In this document: piece after piece, positions 39,653 through 50,765 of the stretch | Layout: each line of letters begins with the position of its first letter | Position numbering within the stretch: position 1 is the first letter of the stretch | From: Bradymonadia bacterium | GTDB lineage: Bacteria; Myxococcota_A; Bradymonadia; UBA7976; UBA1532 | Length of the DNA: 64,000 bases | Assembly (NCBI GenBank): GCA_046290225.1 | Contig: JBKAGE010000034.1 | Span: forward strand, 64,001-128,000 | Direction of reading: 5' to 3' | The notes under the pieces: generated by a model | What the model was told of the DNA's origin: nothing | The model's input: only the letters and a program-made list of their open reading frames with translations | The model's database searches: none | Made by a program: the position numbers and the translations under genes

Positions 39653-40624
39653 TCACAGGCCAGCGCTCGGTGTTCGCTGAATGCACGCCCAGAGGTGAAG
39701 GTGCATCTGAAGATAGCGAATCACCGGCTCCGGCACAGGACGCCCTTCTTCGAGCCACTTGTCGGCGAGCCCTCGAGCCCCCTGCCACACCTCAGGCAAT
39801 TGCGCAGCGCCATCGAGCCATGCCTCCATGACCGGTTCGAGGTCTGCGCCCAGCACCCGGCGACACTGGGACACAGCCCAGTGGTGATCCCGACGCCGAG
39901 GTTGCATCCCCAAGGCCAAATGCATCTGCCGTTTCAGGCTGCTCAGGTGAAGTCGCCCCTTGGGCACGCTCCGCCAGAGAGACCGGGACTGAAGCCCCCA
40001 CGAGAGCGCGTGGGCCCTCAGCAAGTGCACGACCTCATCATCTTCATCGGCGTGTCGGAGCCCTGCACTGAGCACACACCGACCCAGAAAATCTACGCAG
40101 CGGAGAGGGTCCTGCAACATCCGCTCGTCCGTGGCAGGCACTCCAGGCCAATGCTGCAGCGCCCCTTCGGCGAAGAGACCCGGACCCGTGCCCACGACGA
40201 CACGCTCATCGTGGCCGGACCACCTCGGGATCGCCGAGAGCCCGCAACTCGGAGACTTGGACTTCAAGACGAGCCCGTCGATGTGCCCATGGAGTCGATG
40301 TGCTCGGGCGGTGATCAGCGAGGTCGTCCAGTCTCTCCCATGGATGTCGATCATGGCCACACCCGCGGCGTCGACGTGTAGATTCACCGGCGGCCGGGGG
40401 ATCGGCATCCCCGCCTCGACCTCGGGGCAGATCGCCACGACGGTGGCCACAGACTCGAGGGCTGCCTTCAGCCCTGGCTGTTGCTTGTGATCGCCGTCGT
40501 AACGCACGGGATCACCCAGTAGACAGCGGCTCACCATCACCCGTGGTCGCGGCAGCCCAGCGATCTCCCCAGCGATCTCTCCTGGCGACCGCCCGTCGGG
40601 TCGCTGTGTCGCCTCCATCTCCAC
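39653..40624 (-). CDS. DUF523 (2-thiouracil desulfurase-like Fe-S) protein with degenerate C-terminal domain
   Basis: SRCLLGDPVRYDG, CPEVEAGM..PR, LKSKSPSCG, G.GLFA. Confidence 0.85.
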   Translation of the reverse strand: MEMEATQRPDGRSPGEIAGEIAGLPRPRVMVSRCLLGDPVRYDGDHKQQPGLKAALESVATVVAICPEVEAGMPIPRPPVNLHVDAAGVAMIDIHGRDWTTSLITARAHRLHGHIDGLVLKSKSPSCGLSAIPRWSGHDERVVVGTGPGLFAEGALQHWPGVPATDERMLQDPLRCVDFLGRCVLSAGLRHADEDDEVVHLLRAHALSWGLQSRSLWRSVPKGRLHLSSLKRQMHLALGMQPRRRDHHWAVSQCRRVLGADLEPVMEAWLDGAAQLPEVWQGARGLADKWLEEGRPVPEPVIRYLQMHLHLWACIQRTPSAGL

Positions 40625-40686
40625 CTCGCGCCTGCCCTCTCTTCGCCTTGCACCAGAGTCTGACGGCGGTCATCATGCGCCCCGTG

Positions 40687-43152
40687 ATGACACACGTACA
40701 ACTCCCTGAAAAAACCGCCCATGACTTGCAATGGCCTCGGGTGCTCGGGCACCTGAGCGAGCGCTGCCGAGGCCCAGTGGCCCAGCAGATGGCCCTCGCC
40801 CTCACCCCCACCGGTGACGTGGCCGAGGTCGATCGACGACAGCGCCTCACCACCGAAGCCCGAGCGCTCATCGATCGAGGCATGCTGCCACCCTTATCGC
40901 ACCTCGCCGACGTGCGGCGCCCTGTGGGGATCGCTGCACGAGGCGGGGTGCTCGACCCGGAAGACCTCTACGCCGTCGGCGGGCTGCTGGAGACCGCCTG
41001 GCGTTGCCGAGGCTTCTTCAGCCGTCAGGAAGGCGAAGCCCCCGCTCTGGAGGCCATCGCGTACCAGCTGGCCGATTTGCCCGACCTCGCCCGTCAGTTG
41101 CTCGAGAGCTTCGACGAGCGTGGCGACGTCGTCGACTCCGCGAGCCCCGAGCTCGCGGGCCTGCGCACCCGCGTCACCCGTCTGCATGAGCATCTCAAAG
41201 AGGAGGTACACGGCCTGCTCGGCAACGACGAGTACACGGGGCTGCTGCAGGACGACTACTACACCATCCGAGACGATCGATATGTGCTGCCCATCCGGGC
41301 CGGCCACAAACGACACGTACCGGGCATCATCCACGGCTGGTCCTCCTCGGGGCAGACGGTCTACATCGAGCCTCAGCCTGTCGTCGAGGCTAACAACCGG
41401 CTGCTCCTGGCTCAGGCGGAGGTGGATCGCGAGATCAGGCGGCTGCTCACCGAGCTCTCCGAGAAGGTGGGTGAGCACGCGGCAGCCATCGCCGAGACGG
41501 TGGACCACCTCGCGGTGCTCGATCTCTTCATGGCCCAGGGCGAGCTGTCTCAGGTGCTCAGCGGGGCTCAACCGCAGTTCACTGACGCCCCTCGCCTCGT
41601 GCTCCCCGAAGCCCGTCACCCACTCCTCGTGCTCTCGGGCATCGAGGTGGTGCCCAACCGCATCGAGCTCGATGACGGCCGGATGGGTCTGGTGATCACG
41701 GGGCCGAACACCGGCGGCAAGACCGTGACCTTGAAGACCGCGGGGCTGTGCATCCTCATGGCCCTCTCCGGTCTACACATCCCTGCCACCGACAAGGCCG
41801 TAGTGCCTCGGGTGCCCGGGGTGTACTCCGACATCGGCGACGAGCAGAGCATCGATCGGGCGCTGTCCACATTCAGCGGCCACATCACCAACATCGTGGA
41901 GATCCTCAGCCAGATCGCCCCTGGCAGCCTCGTGCTGCTCGACGAGCTGGTCGTGGGCACCGACCCCATTCAGGGCGCGGCGCTGGCCCAGTCGATCCTC
42001 GAGCACCTCGCGAGCCGCAAGATGCTCACGCTGGTGACCACGCACTACGAGTCGCTCAAGGCCCTGCCCTTCAGCGACGAGCGCTTCCGAAACGGCGCCG
42101 TGGGCTTCGACCCTGATCGCCAGGTGCCCACCTACACGCTCCGGATGGACGTGCCGGGGGCCTCTTCGGCCTTCCGCACCGCCCGTCGGCTCGGGGTGAA
42201 CAGCGGCATTGTCGATCGCGCTGCAGAGCTCGCCGGCGGGGCCCAGAACAGCCTCGACGCCCTCATCCAGCGCCTCGACGCCGAAACCGCTGCGGCGGAG
42301 ACGGCCCGTAGGGAGCTGGAGAAGGAGCGCAACCGACTCGCCTCGGCAAAGGCCCGGGTGGAGCAGACGGAGCGGGCCCTCAAGGCGCGCCTCAAGGAGG
42401 CGGTGAGCAAAGAAGAAGACGCCGCGTTGCGAGAGGCCCGCACCCTCCGCGAGGAGATCGTGGCCCTCAAGAAGCGGCTCAAGGGCGCCCGCAAGGACGC
42501 CTCTGCCCTCGAGGCAGGCCGCAAGCAGCTCGCCGAGGTCTCCGACAAGATCCACGCGGCCAAGGCTGCTCGGGCCCGCGCCGAAGCGGGGGATCCAATC
42601 ACTCAGGATCGCATCAAGCCCGGCAGCAGGGTCTTCGTGATCTCCCTCGGGGCCGAGGCCGAGGTGCTCTCCACGCCTGACGATCAAGGCAAGGTCGAAG
42701 TACGGGCCGGGGCCCTCACGGCCCGGTTCCCCATCGACGATCTGCGGCCCCCGGGGCTCAAGGGTCGCGCGGAAGCCAAGGGCCGCACGGGTGGCAGCAA
42801 GCCCGCTCAGAAGGCCCGCAGGGGTGACAACCGCCAGAGCAAAGCCCCCTCCCCCACGGGGGCGGGCCGTCACGACGACATCACGTGGGACTCGGCGCCC
42901 CCTCAGGTACCCGACAACACCGTGGACATCCGTGGCATGCGGGTGGAAGAAGGCGTCGAGCGGGCGGAGCGGTTCCTCGACACCCTCGTGGAGCGGGGCG
43001 TGCCCATCGCCTTCATCATCCACGGCCACGGCACCGGGGCCCTCAAGCGAGAGATCCGCAACTACCTGCGGCACTCTCGTTACGCTCGCTCGCAACGACC
43101 GGGACAACGACACGAAGGGGGTGACGGCGTCACCGCCGTGCTCCTCGCCTGA
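40687..43152 (+). CDS. mutS2: Endonuclease MutS2 (Smr-domain, ribosome-collision factor)
   Basis: SSSGQTVYIEP, ARHPLL, ITGPNTGGKT, DIGDEQSI..LSTFS, DELVVGTDP, TTHY, coiled coil, KOW-like region, Smr IIHGHGTG.L...GGDGVT. Confidence 0.95.
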   Translation: MTHVQLPEKTAHDLQWPRVLGHLSERCRGPVAQQMALALTPTGDVAEVDRRQRLTTEARALIDRGMLPPLSHLADVRRPVGIAARGGVLDPEDLYAVGGLLETAWRCRGFFSRQEGEAPALEAIAYQLADLPDLARQLLESFDERGDVVDSASPELAGLRTRVTRLHEHLKEEVHGLLGNDEYTGLLQDDYYTIRDDRYVLPIRAGHKRHVPGIIHGWSSSGQTVYIEPQPVVEANNRLLLAQAEVDREIRRLLTELSEKVGEHAAAIAETVDHLAVLDLFMAQGELSQVLSGAQPQFTDAPRLVLPEARHPLLVLSGIEVVPNRIELDDGRMGLVITGPNTGGKTVTLKTAGLCILMALSGLHIPATDKAVVPRVPGVYSDIGDEQSIDRALSTFSGHITNIVEILSQIAPGSLVLLDELVVGTDPIQGAALAQSILEHLASRKMLTLVTTHYESLKALPFSDERFRNGAVGFDPDRQVPTYTLRMDVPGASSAFRTARRLGVNSGIVDRAAELAGGAQNSLDALIQRLDAETAAAETARRELEKERNRLASAKARVEQTERALKARLKEAVSKEEDAALREARTLREEIVALKKRLKGARKDASALEAGRKQLAEVSDKIHAAKAARARAEAGDPITQDRIKPGSRVFVISLGAEAEVLSTPDDQGKVEVRAGALTARFPIDDLRPPGLKGRAEAKGRTGGSKPAQKARRGDNRQSKAPSPTGAGRHDDITWDSAPPQVPDNTVDIRGMRVEEGVERAERFLDTLVERGVPIAFIIHGHGTGALKREIRNYLRHSRYARSQRPGQRHEGGDGVTAVLLA

Positions 43153-45797
43153 TGACAGAACGCCAACCCAGGAAGATCTCCATGGCCAGAGTTCGCCCCG
43201 GGGCCTCCGGGCTCACCCTCAGCGTCCTCGCGACGTTGGCTCTGCTCCCCTCGGCTCACGGCCAGGGCACCACCATCGCGCCGACCCGGCCGGGGCAGGG
43301 TCTGCTCCTGCCCACCTCAGACATCGCCGCCAACGATCGGGCGGAGTCGATGGAGGACAACCCTGCCGGGGTGGGCTTCGGGCAAGGCTTCGATCTCACG
43401 CTGACCTATGTGGACAGCACGCAGGATCGAGCCGGTGAGGGCTTCGGCCTCTTCACCGCCTTCCCCCTCGTGGGCCCCTACCACACCGGCCTCGGTCTGC
43501 AGCTGCTCGAATCCAGCGGCCCTCAACAGAACAATGATCCGGTGAAGGTCACCTGGGCCCACGCCCTGCGCCTCGGCTCGAACCTGAGCCTCGGTGTCGC
43601 GTGGCACACCTTCGTCGCCGACGACGATCGCGCCCTCGACGACTACTCCACCTGGGATCTGGGCCTTCAGCTGCGGCTGTCCCGCTGGTTGGCCATGGGG
43701 CTCTCGATCACCGATCTCAGCACCCCCCGCCTCGGCCTCGATCCCGTAGAACGCGCCTGGCAACCCGCCCTCGCCATCCGCCCGGGGACCGAGCGCATGA
43801 CCCTCACCGCCACGGCGCGGTTCCCCGAGGATGGCGATGGTCCTCGAAGCGCCGGTGGCCGCCTGAACTGGAACTTCTGGGGTCCGCTGGCCTTCACTGG
43901 CCGCTACGACTACACCGAGGGCGTGGGCGAGGCTGACGCCACGCATCAGGTGATGGCCGGCTTGAGCACCCAGTTCAGCGGCTTCGACAGCGCTGGTCTC
44001 TACGCCTACAGCCCCGATGCTGCTGGCGACGATCCGAGCTGGGGTGCCGCCTTCGTGAGTCGGATCTCGTCGTCACGGGATCCCTACCGGATGCGGCGGC
44101 GATCCAACCTCGTGGTGGAGCTCGATCTGCGCGGCGCCTTGGAGGAGTACGGGACTGGGGGCTTCTTCTCTTCTCGCCCGCGTACCCCCTTCCTCAACAC
44201 GCTCCGCGTCATCCGGGCCTTGAGCGAGGCCCCTGAGGTGGCCGGTCTGCTGGTGGCTGTACCCAATGGCGGTTATGGCTGGGCCCGCGCGGCAGAGCTC
44301 CGCCAGGCCCTCGGCGCCTTCAAGGCCACAGGGAAGAAGGTCTACGCCTACGTGCCTGTGCCCGACACCCGGGCGTACATGGTGGCCACCGTCGCCGACA
44401 AGATCTACACGGCCCCCTCTGGGGGTCTCCTCACCACGGGCCTCCGAGGTCAGATGACGTTCTACACCTCGGCCATGAACCGGCTGGGCATTCGCGTCGA
44501 CGCAGTGGCCATCGGTCAGTACAAGAGCGCCCCGGAAGCCTTCACCCGCACCGAGCCCTCGGAGCCGGCACGGGAGAACGAAGACGCCCTCCTCGATGAT
44601 CTCTATGCCCACGTGGTGAACCACATCGCCGATGGCCGAGGGATGACCGCCGAGGTGGTGAAGGGCCACATCAACGAGGCCCCCTACACCGCGGAGGAGG
44701 CCAAGGCCCGCAAGCTGGTCGACGGCGTGATTCACTACGACCAGTTCGAAGATGTGGTGCGCAAGGATCTCGGCCCCTGGGTCCGCTTCGCAGGCCCTGA
44801 GGCCATCCTCGGCGACCGCCTCGTGCGGTGGGGCAACAAGCCCCAGGTGGGCGTGCTCTACGCCACGGGCACCATCACCGACGGCGAGTCCGTGGCAAAC
44901 CCCCTCACGGGATCCATGAGCGTGGGCGCCGACACCTTCGTGAAGTCCGCCCGCCGCATGCGGGACGATCCCAGCATCCGGGCGGTGGTGCTGCGCGTAG
45001 ACAGCCCTGGCGGCTCGGTCACAGCCTCCGACGTCATGTGGCGCGAGCTGGCGCTCCTCGCTGAGGAGAAGCCCCTCATCGTGAGCATGGGTGACGTCGC
45101 TGCCTCGGGCGGTTACTACATCGCCGCTCCGGGTCGTGAGATCTTCGCCATGCCGGAGACGATCACGGGCAGCATCGGCATCTTCACCCTCAAGTTCGAT
45201 CTGTCAGGCCTGTACTGGCTGTTCGGGGTGAAGAAGACCGATTTCAAGCGCGGCGATCGCTCCGACTTCATGAGCGACGCCCGTGGTTGGACCGACGAGG
45301 AGCGCGCCGTGGCCAAGAAGGGCATGGAGGCGCTGTACGAGGTGTTCCTCAGCCGCGTCGCCGCCGGCCGTAAGGGCCTGGATCGGGATCGCGTCGACGC
45401 CCTGGCCCAGGGCCGGGTGTGGACTGGCGCTCAAGCCAAGGCTTGCGGCCTGGTGGATCGACCCATGGGGCTGCTCGCCGCCGTGGATCAGGCCGCCGCC
45501 CTCGCTGGCCTCGGCACGGATGACTACTCGGTCTTCGCGGGTCCGCCGAGCGAAGGCTTTGGTGGATTGCCCAGCAGCCCCTTCGGCGCCCTGCTTCAGC
45601 CGGAGACCGAAGGGGTGGTCGACCCCTACATCGCCGCCATAGCCGTCGCCCTCGCCACGCCTGCGGCGGCCCCCCTCCCCCCTGCGGTGGAGGCGCTCGC
45701 CCCCCACCTCGCAGGCCTCGCGGCTCTCCCCGTGGTGCGCTTCACCAGCGGCGAGCCTCTGGCCCTGCTGCCCTTCCAGTTGAACTGGGCACGTTGA
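43152..45797 (+). CDS. sppA: Signal peptide peptidase SppA with N-terminal beta-strand-rich (barrel-like) domain
   Basis: GQYKSA, VLRVDSPGGS, SMGDVAASGGY, TGSIGI, AQGRVWTG; TGATG overlap with mutS2. Confidence 0.9.
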   Translation: MTERQPRKISMARVRPGASGLTLSVLATLALLPSAHGQGTTIAPTRPGQGLLLPTSDIAANDRAESMEDNPAGVGFGQGFDLTLTYVDSTQDRAGEGFGLFTAFPLVGPYHTGLGLQLLESSGPQQNNDPVKVTWAHALRLGSNLSLGVAWHTFVADDDRALDDYSTWDLGLQLRLSRWLAMGLSITDLSTPRLGLDPVERAWQPALAIRPGTERMTLTATARFPEDGDGPRSAGGRLNWNFWGPLAFTGRYDYTEGVGEADATHQVMAGLSTQFSGFDSAGLYAYSPDAAGDDPSWGAAFVSRISSSRDPYRMRRRSNLVVELDLRGALEEYGTGGFFSSRPRTPFLNTLRVIRALSEAPEVAGLLVAVPNGGYGWARAAELRQALGAFKATGKKVYAYVPVPDTRAYMVATVADKIYTAPSGGLLTTGLRGQMTFYTSAMNRLGIRVDAVAIGQYKSAPEAFTRTEPSEPARENEDALLDDLYAHVVNHIADGRGMTAEVVKGHINEAPYTAEEAKARKLVDGVIHYDQFEDVVRKDLGPWVRFAGPEAILGDRLVRWGNKPQVGVLYATGTITDGESVANPLTGSMSVGADTFVKSARRMRDDPSIRAVVLRVDSPGGSVTASDVMWRELALLAEEKPLIVSMGDVAASGGYYIAAPGREIFAMPETITGSIGIFTLKFDLSGLYWLFGVKKTDFKRGDRSDFMSDARGWTDEERAVAKKGMEALYEVFLSRVAAGRKGLDRDRVDALAQGRVWTGAQAKACGLVDRPMGLLAAVDQAAALAGLGTDDYSVFAGPPSEGFGGLPSSPFGALLQPETEGVVDPYIAAIAVALATPAAAPLPPAVEALAPHLAGLAALPVVRFTSGEPLALLPFQLNWAR

Positions 45798-45856
45798 GCG
45801 CCCGGATAGGCGCTCAGACAAACATGCACTGTTGGTATCGAGATTGGATTTGGGCA

Positions 45857-46378
45857 GTGACGGTTGTTGTGGCTGGGCCTTTGTAGGCAGTCATCGCTGC
45901 GCTCTGCCTGCGTAGGCGCCGGGCCTTCGGTCGCCCTTCGGGCAACCTCGTCAGGCGCGTACACGTCGGCACGCTCGCTGTCGCGAGCAGGCCTCCGGGT
46001 AGGCAGGGTCGCTCAATGCTGACGCATTATTCGCTCGCTCCCCTGCGTAAAGAGTTTCTTCTGTATCTCGTTGCTGAACCCCGCCGGGATTCGACCTACC
46101 GCGAACCTGCAAGCCTCAGAGTGTGAACGTTGGGCGTAAGCCCCAACAACATTGGAAGCACCCTGAAGCCACACCAGAACTGACTTTTTACGCAGGGGAG
46201 CGAGCAAACAAGGCGAAGCCTTGAGCGACCCTGCTTACCCGGAAGGGTGTCCGCGCAAGCGGATGCCCGAACGTGTACGCAACTCCAAGGCGGGCCGAAG
46301 GCCGGCCGCCGGCAGTTGCCTACGCAGGCAGAGCGCAGCGATGACTGCCTACAAAGGCCCAGCCATAACCGCCGTCAC
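45857..46378. repeat. Inverted pair of ~200-nt structured units (45857-46055 and 46183-46378) around a 127-nt spacer
   Basis: Inverted blocks match 58/61 (45857-45917 vs 46318-46378), 10/10 (45957-45966 vs 46271-46280), 22/23 (45994-46016 vs 46221-46243) and 22/23 (46033-46055 vs 46183-46205), separated by copy-specific hairpins. Confidence 0.95.
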
Positions 46379-46403
46379 AACCTCATAAGAATCTGATGAA
46401 GCC

Positions 46404-49205
46404 TCAGAACGAGACCCGAGTATGTTTGCCCGGAGCGATCTCAACGAGGCGCACGGCGCTGCGGTTGCTCTTGTCACCGCCGTAACACACGTGCACCCGG
46501 TAGCGACCCTCAGAGAGCTTGAACTTCACCATGGGCGTCTCTCGGGCCACCTGGCGGCCATCGACGAAGACCGTGCCCCAGGGCTGTGACTGAACACTGA
46601 GGAAGCCCTCTCCGCCGCCACGGGGCGGTGGCGGTGGTACATCCTGCACAGGAGGGCGCCTGAAGTCGCCTCGCCGATCATCTCTGCGATCGTCCCTGCG
46701 GTTGTTGCTCACCGCTCGGCGGGAGACCGTGCGACGGGGCGGCTTTCGACGTTGGGTCGACGCCCGCCGACGTGTGGGCGTCTTATTCACGAGAGTGGGC
46801 GGATCTGCAGAGAGCGGCTCGAGCACGGCCACGACCTGGGCTTCACGTGTGCCCCCCCACTCCACAGAGCGCTCATAGGGCTTGAAGCCTGGCTTGCTCA
46901 CCCTGACGCGGGTCACCCCTTTCATGGACACCCCCGACTGCGTGATGGGGGTGGTGCCCAGGGCCTGCTCGTTCACGTAGACCTGGGCGCCGATGGGCTC
47001 TGAGCGCACCACCAGCGTACCCTGACGCTCCACGAGGCGCGCCTCCAGCAAACGCTCTTCACCAGGCTTCAGGGTCAGGGTCTGCTCGAAGGCCTCATAG
47101 CCATCACCGAGGGAGACCTGCACACGGATCGGTTTGCCAGGAGGCACAGCGACGTTCGTCGGCGTGCCACCGAGCATCACCATATCGTCCACCTTCACCT
47201 GGGCGCCACGAGCCGGGAAGGAGTCGATCTTGAGGACCGCCTTCTCTGCGGAGTTCACTGCGCCCACCTGCGTCGGATCAGAGGGCCCGTCGCCACCGCC
47301 GGCATTTTGTTCGGCGTTCTGGCCGATGGTGGCCGTGGTGGGCTCGGGATCGTCATCGCTGATGATCCAACGCGTGAGCAGCGCGGTGCTGATGGCCGCC
47401 AGGGCTGCCAGAGCGATGAAGCTCACCCGCTCCCGAGTGAAAAAGCCGCCACCACGACGGTGGGTCGTGGCCCGGGCGGCGGGGGCGCTCGGCTGAGGCT
47501 CTGGTGACCGCTGACTGGGCGTCACGGGCTCCAGACGCAGGTCAGTCGGTCGCCGCATACGACCCGATCGTCGTGGCGGGGGCGCTTGCGGCGCAGCCTG
47601 CTTCTGCTCCTCTTCCATGGCCACGATGACCGTGGGCCGGCGGTTGAAGTTCTGCCCGCTCTGCCCTTCGGCGGCAGGGGCCGGTGATCGTTGTGGCTCA
47701 CCGAAGTTGGGCCGCCTCACTTGCCCCGAACGACCCGGGACCGGCGTCGAGCGCCTGCGAGATGACGGCTGTGGCTCCGGTGTGGGCGTTGCCGAGAACT
47801 CCACGGGCATCTGCGTCGACAACGAGGCTGGCGGCCCCAATGGTTTGCGCTGTCCGTGCTGCCCTCGGGGAGAAGGCGCCGGAGGCGCTGAGACGTCAGG
47901 CAGCGCCTCTGTGGGCTTGAGCGGGCGATCGAAAGCTCGAGTCTCTTCTTCCTCGAAGAAGTCTTCCACGAGGCCGCCACGGGCCTTGAAGCCCGAGACA
48001 TCGATCGAGTCGAAGGGCTCGGGGCGTCTGGCGCCGTCGTGGTTGATCGTCTCTTCCTCGTCTTCGACCAGCTCCAGTTCGCCGGAGTCGAGCTCGAAGA
48101 GCTCGCTCTCCACGCCAGGATCCTGAAAGCCCGACGACATGCGATGCTTGTTGCTCTGCATCTCGGTGGCGTCGTCCTCAAAAGAGAGCGGTGCCCCGGC
48201 CATGGAGATGACTGAACCGCCGTCCTGCACCCAGTCGTCGCGGTGCATGGCCACCGACTCGTCGAGGGGCATCTCGGTGTTCGTATCGGTCTCTTCGAAC
48301 AGCTCGGTCATCAACCGCCGCAGCTGCACCTTGCCGAAGACCGCCGCCGATGTGCGCAGGAAGTTGGCCAGATCTTTCTGGAAGTGCCGTGCCGTGGGGT
48401 AGCGCGCCTCGCGGTCCTTCGACAGAGCCCGCATCACGATCTGCTCGAGCATGGGCGGCACGTCGGGCCTCAAGCGGCTCGGCGGCTCGATGTCGGCGCG
48501 ACGCACCCGGCTGAGCAAGGTGACGTCGTCGTCATCTTTGTAGAGCAGGTCACCCGTGAGCATCTCGTACATGACGATGCCCAGGCTGAAGATGTCGGTC
48601 CGGTGGTCCAGGGCCTCGCCCTTCGCCTGCTCCGGCGACATGTAATAGAACTTGCCCTTGATGATGCCCGCTTCGGTCTCGTAGGCCCGCGAGGCGGCCT
48701 TGGCGATGCCAAAGTCGACGAGCTTCACCTCCCCCTCGAGAGACAACAGCACGTTCTGGGGGCTCACATCACGGTGGATGATGTTGAGCCTGCGCCCCTT
48801 GCTGTCACGCTTGCGGTGGGCGTAGTCGAGGCCCGCACAGCACTCCATGCCCACATAGGCCGCAGCCTCTACGGGTAAGGGGCTGCGACGTTCCCGCACC
48901 TTCTTCATCACCCGGTACAGGTCGCGACCTTCGATGTACTCCATGGCGATGTAGTAGTGGTCCTCGTGACGCCCCAGGTCGAAGATCTGCCCGATGTTGC
49001 TGTGTGACAGCTCCACGGTGATCTTCGCCTCGTCGATGAGCATCTCGATGAAGTCGGCATCCTGGCTGTAGCGGGGGTGTAGCCGCTTGATGGCGAGTAT
49101 CTTCTCGAAACCGCCCAGGCCCTGGGCCTTGGCTCTGAAGATCTCGGCCATGCCTCCGATGGCGATGCGGTCGAGAAGGATGTATCGGCCGAACTGCTCC
49201 TGCAT
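46404..49205 (-). CDS. Ser/Thr protein kinase with TM and PEGA domains
   Basis: GGMAEIF, AIKRL, HRDVSPQN, DFGIAK, GKFYYMSPEQ; TM segment; PEGA repeats (SEPIGAQVYVN, SQPWGTVFVDG). Confidence 0.95.
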   Translation of the reverse strand: MQEQFGRYILLDRIAIGGMAEIFRAKAQGLGGFEKILAIKRLHPRYSQDADFIEMLIDEAKITVELSHSNIGQIFDLGRHEDHYYIAMEYIEGRDLYRVMKKVRERRSPLPVEAAAYVGMECCAGLDYAHRKRDSKGRRLNIIHRDVSPQNVLLSLEGEVKLVDFGIAKAASRAYETEAGIIKGKFYYMSPEQAKGEALDHRTDIFSLGIVMYEMLTGDLLYKDDDDVTLLSRVRRADIEPPSRLRPDVPPMLEQIVMRALSKDREARYPTARHFQKDLANFLRTSAAVFGKVQLRRLMTELFEETDTNTEMPLDESVAMHRDDWVQDGGSVISMAGAPLSFEDDATEMQSNKHRMSSGFQDPGVESELFELDSGELELVEDEEETINHDGARRPEPFDSIDVSGFKARGGLVEDFFEEEETRAFDRPLKPTEALPDVSAPPAPSPRGQHGQRKPLGPPASLSTQMPVEFSATPTPEPQPSSRRRSTPVPGRSGQVRRPNFGEPQRSPAPAAEGQSGQNFNRRPTVIVAMEEEQKQAAPQAPPPRRSGRMRRPTDLRLEPVTPSQRSPEPQPSAPAARATTHRRGGGFFTRERVSFIALAALAAISTALLTRWIISDDDPEPTTATIGQNAEQNAGGGDGPSDPTQVGAVNSAEKAVLKIDSFPARGAQVKVDDMVMLGGTPTNVAVPPGKPIRVQVSLGDGYEAFEQTLTLKPGEERLLEARLVERQGTLVVRSEPIGAQVYVNEQALGTTPITQSGVSMKGVTRVRVSKPGFKPYERSVEWGGTREAQVVAVLEPLSADPPTLVNKTPTRRRASTQRRKPPRRTVSRRAVSNNRRDDRRDDRRGDFRRPPVQDVPPPPPRGGGEGFLSVQSQPWGTVFVDGRQVARETPMVKFKLSEGRYRVHVCYGGDKSNRSAVRLVEIAPGKHTRVSF

Positions 49206-50741: not shown

Positions 50742-50765
50742 GCTCCGCCGCCGTAGCGGCGGAGC
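50742..50765. terminator. GC-rich hairpin between convergent genes (possible terminator)
   Basis: GCTCCGCCGC-CGTA-GCGGCGGAGC, perfect 10-bp stem; no clear U-tract. Confidence 0.55.

Follow-up and report, generated by a model that had tools for sequence, protein, structure and literature searches.

The 64,000-nucleotide stretch of a Bradymonadia bacterium genome analysed here (the window; positions 64,001 to 128,000 of contig JBKAGE010000034.1) contains, in the gap between the convergent genes for an SppA-type peptidase and a Ser/Thr protein kinase, a non-coding element at approximately 45829-46406, composed of two inverted, hairpin-rich arms around an asymmetric core. It is a member of a dispersed repeat family, in one copy of which the same arms enclose a four-helix-bundle (S23p/Avd-like) gene. 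The window element can be explained as the gene-less form of a hairpin-armed cassette carrying such a gene, a reading to which we assign an even chance. That these units spread through folding of single-stranded DNA (ssDNA), binding by a ring-shaped protein and copying by host enzymes to the 3' ends of genes is, taken as a whole, a more tentative proposal. Similarly tentative is the broader suggestion that four-helix-bundle genes and inverted arms constitute a widespread class of transposase-less mobile DNA, in which a ring adaptor would mark folded ssDNA arms for host copying, and of which the arms described here may have become a combinatorial kit of mini-hairpins, recombining like a population and with its end set at host stop codons.

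BlastN analysis of the genome assembly (8.58 Mb on 83 contigs, with a GC content of 64% and a marker-based completeness of 99.4%; G000 below, with C numbers for its contigs), a check proposed in the first-pass annotation of this DNA, identified 54 loci of the element family, 36 of which are full length. The remaining eighteen comprise two copies with an enlarged middle, four truncated by a contig end, five one-armed and seven centre-deleted copies. The full copies share a single layout of an arm, a conserved core of 135 nt and an inverted arm, with 460-490 nt between anchors, giving a GC-rich unit of ~580 bp in which arms of ~220 nt each hold four modules. Their mean identity is 85% (76-97%), 208/493 columns are invariant, and none overlaps a called gene (0/36). 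Collapsed copies, retained as remnants of 50-330 bp, are frequent, and the seven centre-deleted derivatives fit fold-back of the element in vivo.

In the window copy, the left outer end (45829..45874, forward strand), an eroded stretch of the terminal inverted repeat (TIR), was delimited by the consensus, a hidden Markov model (HMM) and the stop-codon register at -46, with its outermost base inferred. It is followed by the left arm (45875..46051, forward strand), in which the 36-copy alignment places constant blocks at 45875-45890, 45908-45915, 45957-45965, 45995-46016 and 46033-46051, with modules 0-3 between them. The conserved asymmetric core (46052..46186, forward strand) separates this arm from the inverted right arm (46187..46360, reverse strand), for which the alignment of copies shows the same constant blocks and other module alleles, and the right outer end (46361..46406, reverse strand) extends as far as the stop codon of the kinase gene, which lies at a distance of 44 nt from the constant block. 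The host gene sppA (TIGR00705/6; 43152-45797, forward strand) ends 78 nt from the left constant block, while the convergent kinase gene (46404-49205, reverse strand) has its stop codon at 46404-46406. Directly upstream of sppA lies an 869-aa open reading frame (ORF; 40543-43152), which by its motifs resembles MutS2. The two head-to-head inverted units recognised in this gap by the first-pass annotation were recovered, with 45857-45917 matching 46318-46378 at 58/61 positions, including a perfect run of 48 nt. The remaining inverted blocks between the arms match at 10/10, 22/23 and 21/22 positions, the last having originally been counted as 22/23. The paired hairpins quoted for the intervening segments are present, and the view that no credible ORF lies inside holds, as the sole frame of at least 100 aa is a 112-aa antisense frame which begins within the left arm and extends into sppA. 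The proposed ~520-bp element (45857..46378) is real but larger, by ~30 nt on each side, reaching the kinase stop codon. Both the 135-nt middle, which is a conserved part of the element, and the 53 further loci in the genome had been missed. The 578-nt region folds with a z-score of -19 relative to 100 shuffles, mainly through arm-to-arm pairing, and single arms on their own fold weakly better than shuffles (z -1.4 and -2.2).

The link to a protein is provided by the copy at C77:107006-107858, where a four-helix-bundle gene occupies the place of the core between the same arms. Its product matches the profiles PF05635 (E 1e-24) and TIGR02436 (E 2e-26), while modules 0, 2 and 3 on both arms recur as identical alleles in 2-18 further arms, with module 1 being unique. 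The only other PF05635/TIGR02436 gene in the genome is intact and lies between the arms of a sister repeat family, H (C72:82266-83361), which flank it over 316 nt at 96% identity. Among the family relatives, inverted flanks were observed at 7/12 four-helix-bundle genes. Furthermore, in a cross-phylum set of 79 loci of these genes from many phyla, of which 67 had enough flank, 54/67 have inverted arms (inverted-flank score of at least 14) vs 2/234 shifted controls, mostly as arrays of 7-base repeats. The arms of four-helix-bundle genes also occur gene-less in three relatives, with the gene present at 0/13 checked loci and inverted pairs visible at eight. Gene-less arm copies were seen in relatives at G005:C49:39297-39605, and also in the genomes G019 and G041. 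The solved relative is XCC0516 (2gsc; E 1e-37), a homopentameric ring with a function that is not known according to the source (PMC4990558). The C77 protein has many homologues in which the marks of PF05635 and PF22296 (bAvd) occur together. Avd itself is a positively charged, RNA-binding pentamer with a non-catalytic or auxiliary role alongside its reverse transcriptase (RT) (PMC6182149), and PF22296 has no match in this genome. The core as a decayed four-helix-bundle gene was rejected as undetectable: in six-frame comparison with an HMM built from 106 sequences, 32 cores of the window family, 19 of sister family S and 10 of family H scored as shuffles, with best DNA matches at E 0.5-0.6. 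In the open-access literature, to which the search was restricted with subscription papers not covered, no description of the gene-arm pairing outside rRNA intervening sequences (IVS) was found. Heptamer repeats near stop codons have been described, with no mention of a helix bundle or of intervening sequences in the parts of that paper used here (PMC4692102).

The arms carry strand-specific mini-hairpins. Family-wide, the motif (G/C)CG-N1-2-AG(C/G) occurs 382 times on the strand with its 3' end outward and 27 times on the other, with ~26 expected. Those of the left arm in the window copy lie on the reverse strand within 45896..46025 (first bases 45902, 45930, 45941, 45984, 45998 and 46025), while a motif scan placed those of the right arm on the forward strand at 46213, 46239, 46253, 46295 and 46333. 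Of 60 distinct hairpins on the outward-3' strand, 29 have a G..A loop, and the complementary T..C loop does not occur. The loops include C-GNA-G triloops and mostly non-GNRA GNNA tetraloops (GNYA 10, GNRA 3). Mini-hairpins of this kind have a melting temperature of 70-76 C in DNA, vs 39 C for an 8-mer in RNA, bind the single-stranded DNA-binding protein SSB poorly and mark primase sites in phage G4 and RSF1010 (PMC13037366). The confinement of the motifs to one strand per arm thus favours folded ssDNA over a pair of RNAs, and we infer that selection acts on folded ssDNA. With either parameter set, energy modelling prefers the outward strand in modules 2 and 3; in modules 0 and 1 the inward strand is preferred with the RNA parameters, which argues against a clean DNA verdict.

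The pair of structured non-coding RNAs offered as an alternative in the first-pass annotation is unsupported, given the loop types, the one-strand motifs, and the lack of an Rfam match and of a sigma-70-like promoter. No Rfam family reached its gathering threshold (best 14-24 bits vs thresholds of 39-106, with 2/3 within the flanking genes), there was no rRNA match at the locus and no tRNA or tmRNA in the window, and scans for sigma-70-like promoters and for terminators gave none at the element. The consensus RNA structure of the core showed no two-sided covariation. It has also to be considered that the copies move by an RNA route, in which read-through transcripts fold the arms, RNase III cuts them as in 23S rRNA IVS, and an RT helped by an Avd-like protein copies them to new 3' ends. 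Read-through is likely, with 49/72 element ends facing the 3' end of a gene, and the core carries a GNAA loop. RNase III releases S23p-bearing IVS by way of a terminal stem (PMC4990558), and Avd binds RNA and supports reverse transcription (PMC6182149). The genome also encodes two RTs with a collapsed copy of the element between them, in two convergent type XIII retron operons (SWIM protein and RT; C79:176700-183400) where the remnant lies between the RT stop codons. However, triloops and GNYA loops are not RNA motifs, both RTs belong to type XIII retrons with their own SWIM partners, none being of the diversity-generating retroelement (DGR) type, and beyond the collapsed remnant their locus is unlike the arms or core. 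Taken with the missing Rfam and bAvd matches and a core orientation that is unbiased relative to transcription (10 vs 7), the RNA route appears improbable.

Each arm comprises five constant blocks and four hairpin modules, with 15-37 distinct alleles per module belonging to few types. Among the 32 copies with all modules parsed (four were dropped), all arms are distinct (64/64). Linkage across 115 biallelic sites declines from an r2 of 0.35 (up to 10 nt) to 0.07 (25-50 nt) and 0.04 beyond, and ~90% of site pairs more than 25 nt apart show all four gametes. The copies thus recombine freely, and the hairpin differences represent alleles from a pool. Stem positions change Watson-Crick pair type with almost no broken pair, both in module 2 (CG 30/TA 4, CG 17/TA 17 and TA 12/CG 21/AA 1) and in module 3 (TA 7/GC 13 and AT 10/GC 9/GT 1). 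The compensatory replacement in covarying hairpins that had been claimed for this locus is therefore correct in that the structure is constrained and pair types swap, but the differences are family-wide alleles rather than private to the locus, and the covariation is that of few independent events, a small number of alleles reshuffled by recombination. Over all copies, 160 outer non-consensus bases are common to both arms of a copy, vs 81 in permutations (maximum 112 of 3000), and the two alleles of module 0 within a copy resemble each other more closely (P 0.006), an outer symmetry which fits template switching in a fold-back. For inner modules 1-3, the two arms of a copy tend to carry unlike alleles (Fisher P 0.003, 0.048 and 0.024; 34 copies), which fits either interior inversions or selection against a long perfect palindrome. 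Long perfect palindromes are selected against through SbcCD and palindrome instability.

Further repeat families occur in the same genome. Family H has ~45 two-armed loci, with runs of a 6-base repeat in the arms and a different core. The arms of family S (e.g. C9:16209-16564 and C4:15005-15356) are made of a tandem 12-bp unit with variable hairpins and differ from those of the window family, while its core is homologous (nhmmer E 8e-10), with boxes in common at 46096-46106 and 46133-46144 of the window copy, and its mini-hairpins show a strand bias of 136 vs 29 (19 copies). A fourth family of ~62 loci (including C81:47840-47990) is apparently one-armed and set at stop codons; it abuts truncated window-family copies at C81 and C46 and has one motif match in the window, at 50747.

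Beyond the first constant block, an outer consensus of ~46-48 nt could be followed, with support fading outward from ~90% to 40%. Hits of an HMM of this outer zone are confined to family loci (32/32), so that the zone belongs to the element, in eroded form. The idea that copies had inserted into a pre-existing palindromic target was rejected, with 0/32 hits falling off family loci. The ends of the element are its least conserved part, while the inner constant blocks are nearly invariant. Using gene context from a home-made gene caller (6007 genes), 16/36 full copies were located between convergent genes, vs 985/5925 gene pairs (P 8e-5), with seventeen between tandem and three between divergent genes. 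All 36 lie between protein-coding genes and none in an rRNA helix. Forty-two stop codons are situated within 95 nt of the first block, thirteen of them at 43-47 nt and seven at exactly 46 nt; this register at ~46 nt indicates that the element end often coincides with the host stop codon. At the modal register, 6/7 stop codons are TAG or TAA, vs 1172/6007 genome-wide (80% TGA). The longest flanking direct repeat is 5.5 nt within and 5.4 nt between loci, a test to which a 2-bp TA duplication is invisible. Placement at TAG and TAA stops would be accounted for if the element were a classical miniature inverted-repeat transposable element (MITE) moved by a TA-targeting, IS630-like DDE transposase, and both the long TIRs and the TA in which most bacterial MITEs end (PMC2229807) agree with this. 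Nevertheless, poorly conserved ends are the opposite of a transposase-bound TIR, TAG followed by A at the register was found in only 8/72 arms, and the element is GC-rich, with a length of ~580 bp. No DDE_3/IS630 gene was found in the assembly, the sole IS4-like gene being a passenger in an H core, and a MITE origin is accordingly highly improbable. The IS4-like transposase is present in single copy (403-aa frame; C50:55640-56900).

Searches of related genomes, also suggested at first pass, identified no true homologue in 40 relatives (one 31-nt chance match within a gene) or in 112 genomes of the class (three 22-31-nt matches, E 0.001-0.007). Exact searches, by which diverged families would be missed, gave no match to the core pattern in a species-genome collection, one match without arms in metagenomes, and none to an arm 19-mer in viral contigs. 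A seawater run contains a close strain (genes 98-100% alike on the long pieces listed), in which the 30-nt flanks of arm pieces equal those of two loci here; at least these two insertions are thus common to both strains. A contig of run X3 (depth 3.3) joins the flanks of the copy at C9:29631-30106, skipping 474 nt with the intervening letters unread, and this is possibly a collapsed or empty allele. Nested within the core of one copy is an element of 175 bp that has inverted ends of 20 nt (C34:360950-361140). The two insertions common to the related strain, together with eroded ends around invariant inner blocks, the enrichment between convergent genes and the use of mini-hairpins as primase sites in phage G4 and RSF1010 (PMC13037366), would suit a domesticated host structure, in which selection and gene conversion maintain old copies that no longer move, for use in priming or restart or as convergent-transcription buffers. 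This is quite improbable as a full explanation, as the family is restricted to one lineage, several repeat families of the same design coexist, collapse to 50-330-bp remnants is frequent, and the gene link and origin are left unexplained. It is compatible with the gene-less cassette as a later role.

The classification as a REP/REPIN/BIME-like non-autonomous element (repetitive extragenic palindrome, REP; REP doublet forming a hairpin, REPIN; bacterial interspersed mosaic element, BIME) made at first pass stands insofar as the family is dispersed, non-coding and structure-constrained. It does not extend to the expected partner, a REP-associated tyrosine transposase (RAYT) or GIY-YIG gene, as the gene found is that of a four-helix bundle. 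The RAYT/Y1 profiles PF01797 and NF047646 have no match in the assembly, and a custom HMM made from Y1-like frames of 20 relatives gave a best E of 0.04 and no HUH protein. A tblastn search with one Y1-like query frame gave a 56-aa match at C34:407399, and the one GIY-YIG match lies within a 625-aa frame. IS110, IS630-type (DDE_3) and IS91-type transposases were likewise not found in the assembly, IS3, IS21, IS256 and site-specific recombinases not having been searched. Four TnpB genes are present (C35:142955, C64:11737, C35:40094 and C45:37185), three of which have related IS605-type ends. The retron, TnpB and IS4-like genes were rejected as mobilisers, their ends or flanks being unlike the element.

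The main rival explanation is an orphaned family of the REPIN or TIR type, spread through ssDNA by an HUH tyrosine transposase (RAYT or TIRYT) which was then lost or remained unassembled, with the four-helix-bundle gene as a separate entity homing into hairpins. It would account for the inverted extragenic doublet, the GTAG 5' of three stems per arm and the lack of a long target duplication. RAYT-like genes can have long flanking TIRs and REPtrons can be deleted (PMC3733652). The four TnpB genes have no Y1 partner in the assembly, and Y1-like genes occur in 12/30 relatives of the order. However, the 99%-complete assembly yielded neither a profile match nor a convincing custom HMM hit, and only 1/15 scorable Y1-like genes of the relatives has an inverted-flank score of at least 14, with none resembling the window-family arms. 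Furthermore, REPINs decay without RAYT (bioRxiv 2021.07.10.451892), yet the constant blocks here are nearly invariant, and REPINs measure ~100 bp vs ~580 bp here. The orphaned-family explanation is thus considered rather unlikely.

Several observations also weigh against the gene-less cassette. The four-helix-bundle gene is present in only 1/54 loci, where it is frameshifted near its start and has 51% GC vs 64% for the genome. It may have joined a repeat already in place, as a passenger, and the core shows no trace of a decayed gene, its bits being equal to those of shuffles. No catalytic activity is known for the S23p family, according to the source (PMC4990558). The flanks in other phyla, being mostly 7-base arrays, lack the mini-hairpin strand bias (60 vs 65), so that the protein cannot read one shared sequence. 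The negative association between arms can arise from simple inversions too, and three stems in each arm have GTAG at their base, as in REPs. It follows from the TnpB-only elements that a Y1 transposase either was active here in the past or escaped assembly; with their own Y1 enzyme also missing, the argument from absence of a transposase is weakened. Finally, no movement was seen, and no empty site for the window copy was found in three low-depth runs (low-depth contigs; two stretches compared).

Under the gene-less cassette reading, the strand running 3'-outward would fold into mini-hairpins when the DNA becomes single-stranded, and the ring-shaped four-helix-bundle protein would bind these in the role of an adaptor without catalytic activity. 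The unit could then be copied to gene 3' ends by a nicking or priming enzyme of the host, without a long target duplication, after which inserted copies would be inherited vertically. Recombination between copies would swap modules, template switching inside the fold-back would transfer changes in the outer part of one arm to its partner, and dissimilar inner modules may keep the palindrome imperfect enough to survive replication. The link ties an abundant family of unknown function (PF05635/TIGR02436, kin of Avd) to bacterial palindromic repeats of unexplained origin and, if causal, means that repeats can also spread in bacteria by a mode that neither the RAYT nor the DDE model covers. The intact C72 protein and a defined arm substrate from the same genome suit a binding test. 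The family further provides a clear example from nature of selection on ssDNA mini-hairpins, and of a long palindrome in which the outer stems become alike and the interior stays imperfect.

Among known systems, the element works most like a REPIN, and differs from it in two defining properties, size and a cognate RAYT. In common with REPINs, GTAG-tagged REPs with RAYT and TIRtrons, it is an extragenic inverted doublet with a predicted ssDNA fold and a conserved spacer length (PMC3116915, PMC3733652, bioRxiv 2021.07.10.451892), and it shares with REPINs and REPs the compensatory changes, GTAG at the stem foot, lineage restriction and lack of a long target duplication. While a REPIN of ~100 bp, as described there, has one 20-40-bp REP per side, the present unit of ~580 bp has four interchangeable modules per arm, and GTAG, which in REPs is unpaired at the palindrome end, is here internal and repeated before three stems per arm. 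Also distinct from REPINs are the asymmetric core, common with a second family, the absence of a detected RAYT, and the four-helix-bundle gene as the only gene between arms. Bacterial MITEs such as RUP, Correia and YPAL are likewise non-coding and dispersed, with TIRs and possible TA ends (PMC2229807), but the element exceeds 200 bp, is GC-rich, has eroded ends, and shows neither a transposase with matching ends nor a detectable duplication above 2-4 bp. DGRs resemble it in having a pentameric, four-helix, nucleic-acid-binding accessory protein, Avd, and a short DNA hairpin with a G..A (GRNA) loop as a cis signal (PMC3240598, PMC6182149), although neither RT of the genome is of the DGR type and no bAvd match was found. 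In ORF-bearing 23S rRNA IVS, the repeat is a 28-bp RNA stem within rRNA, whereas here arms of ~220 nt with DNA-type mini-hairpins stand behind protein genes, in dozens of gene-less copies including that of the window, with an S23p ORF between the arms in the C77 copy only. These IVS nevertheless share with the present family a protein of the same kind (S23p/PF05635/TIGR02436) enclosed by TIRs, a gene decaying in some copies, heptamer repeats beside the ORF in a published case, and a mobility that has been proposed but is unproven (PMC4990558).
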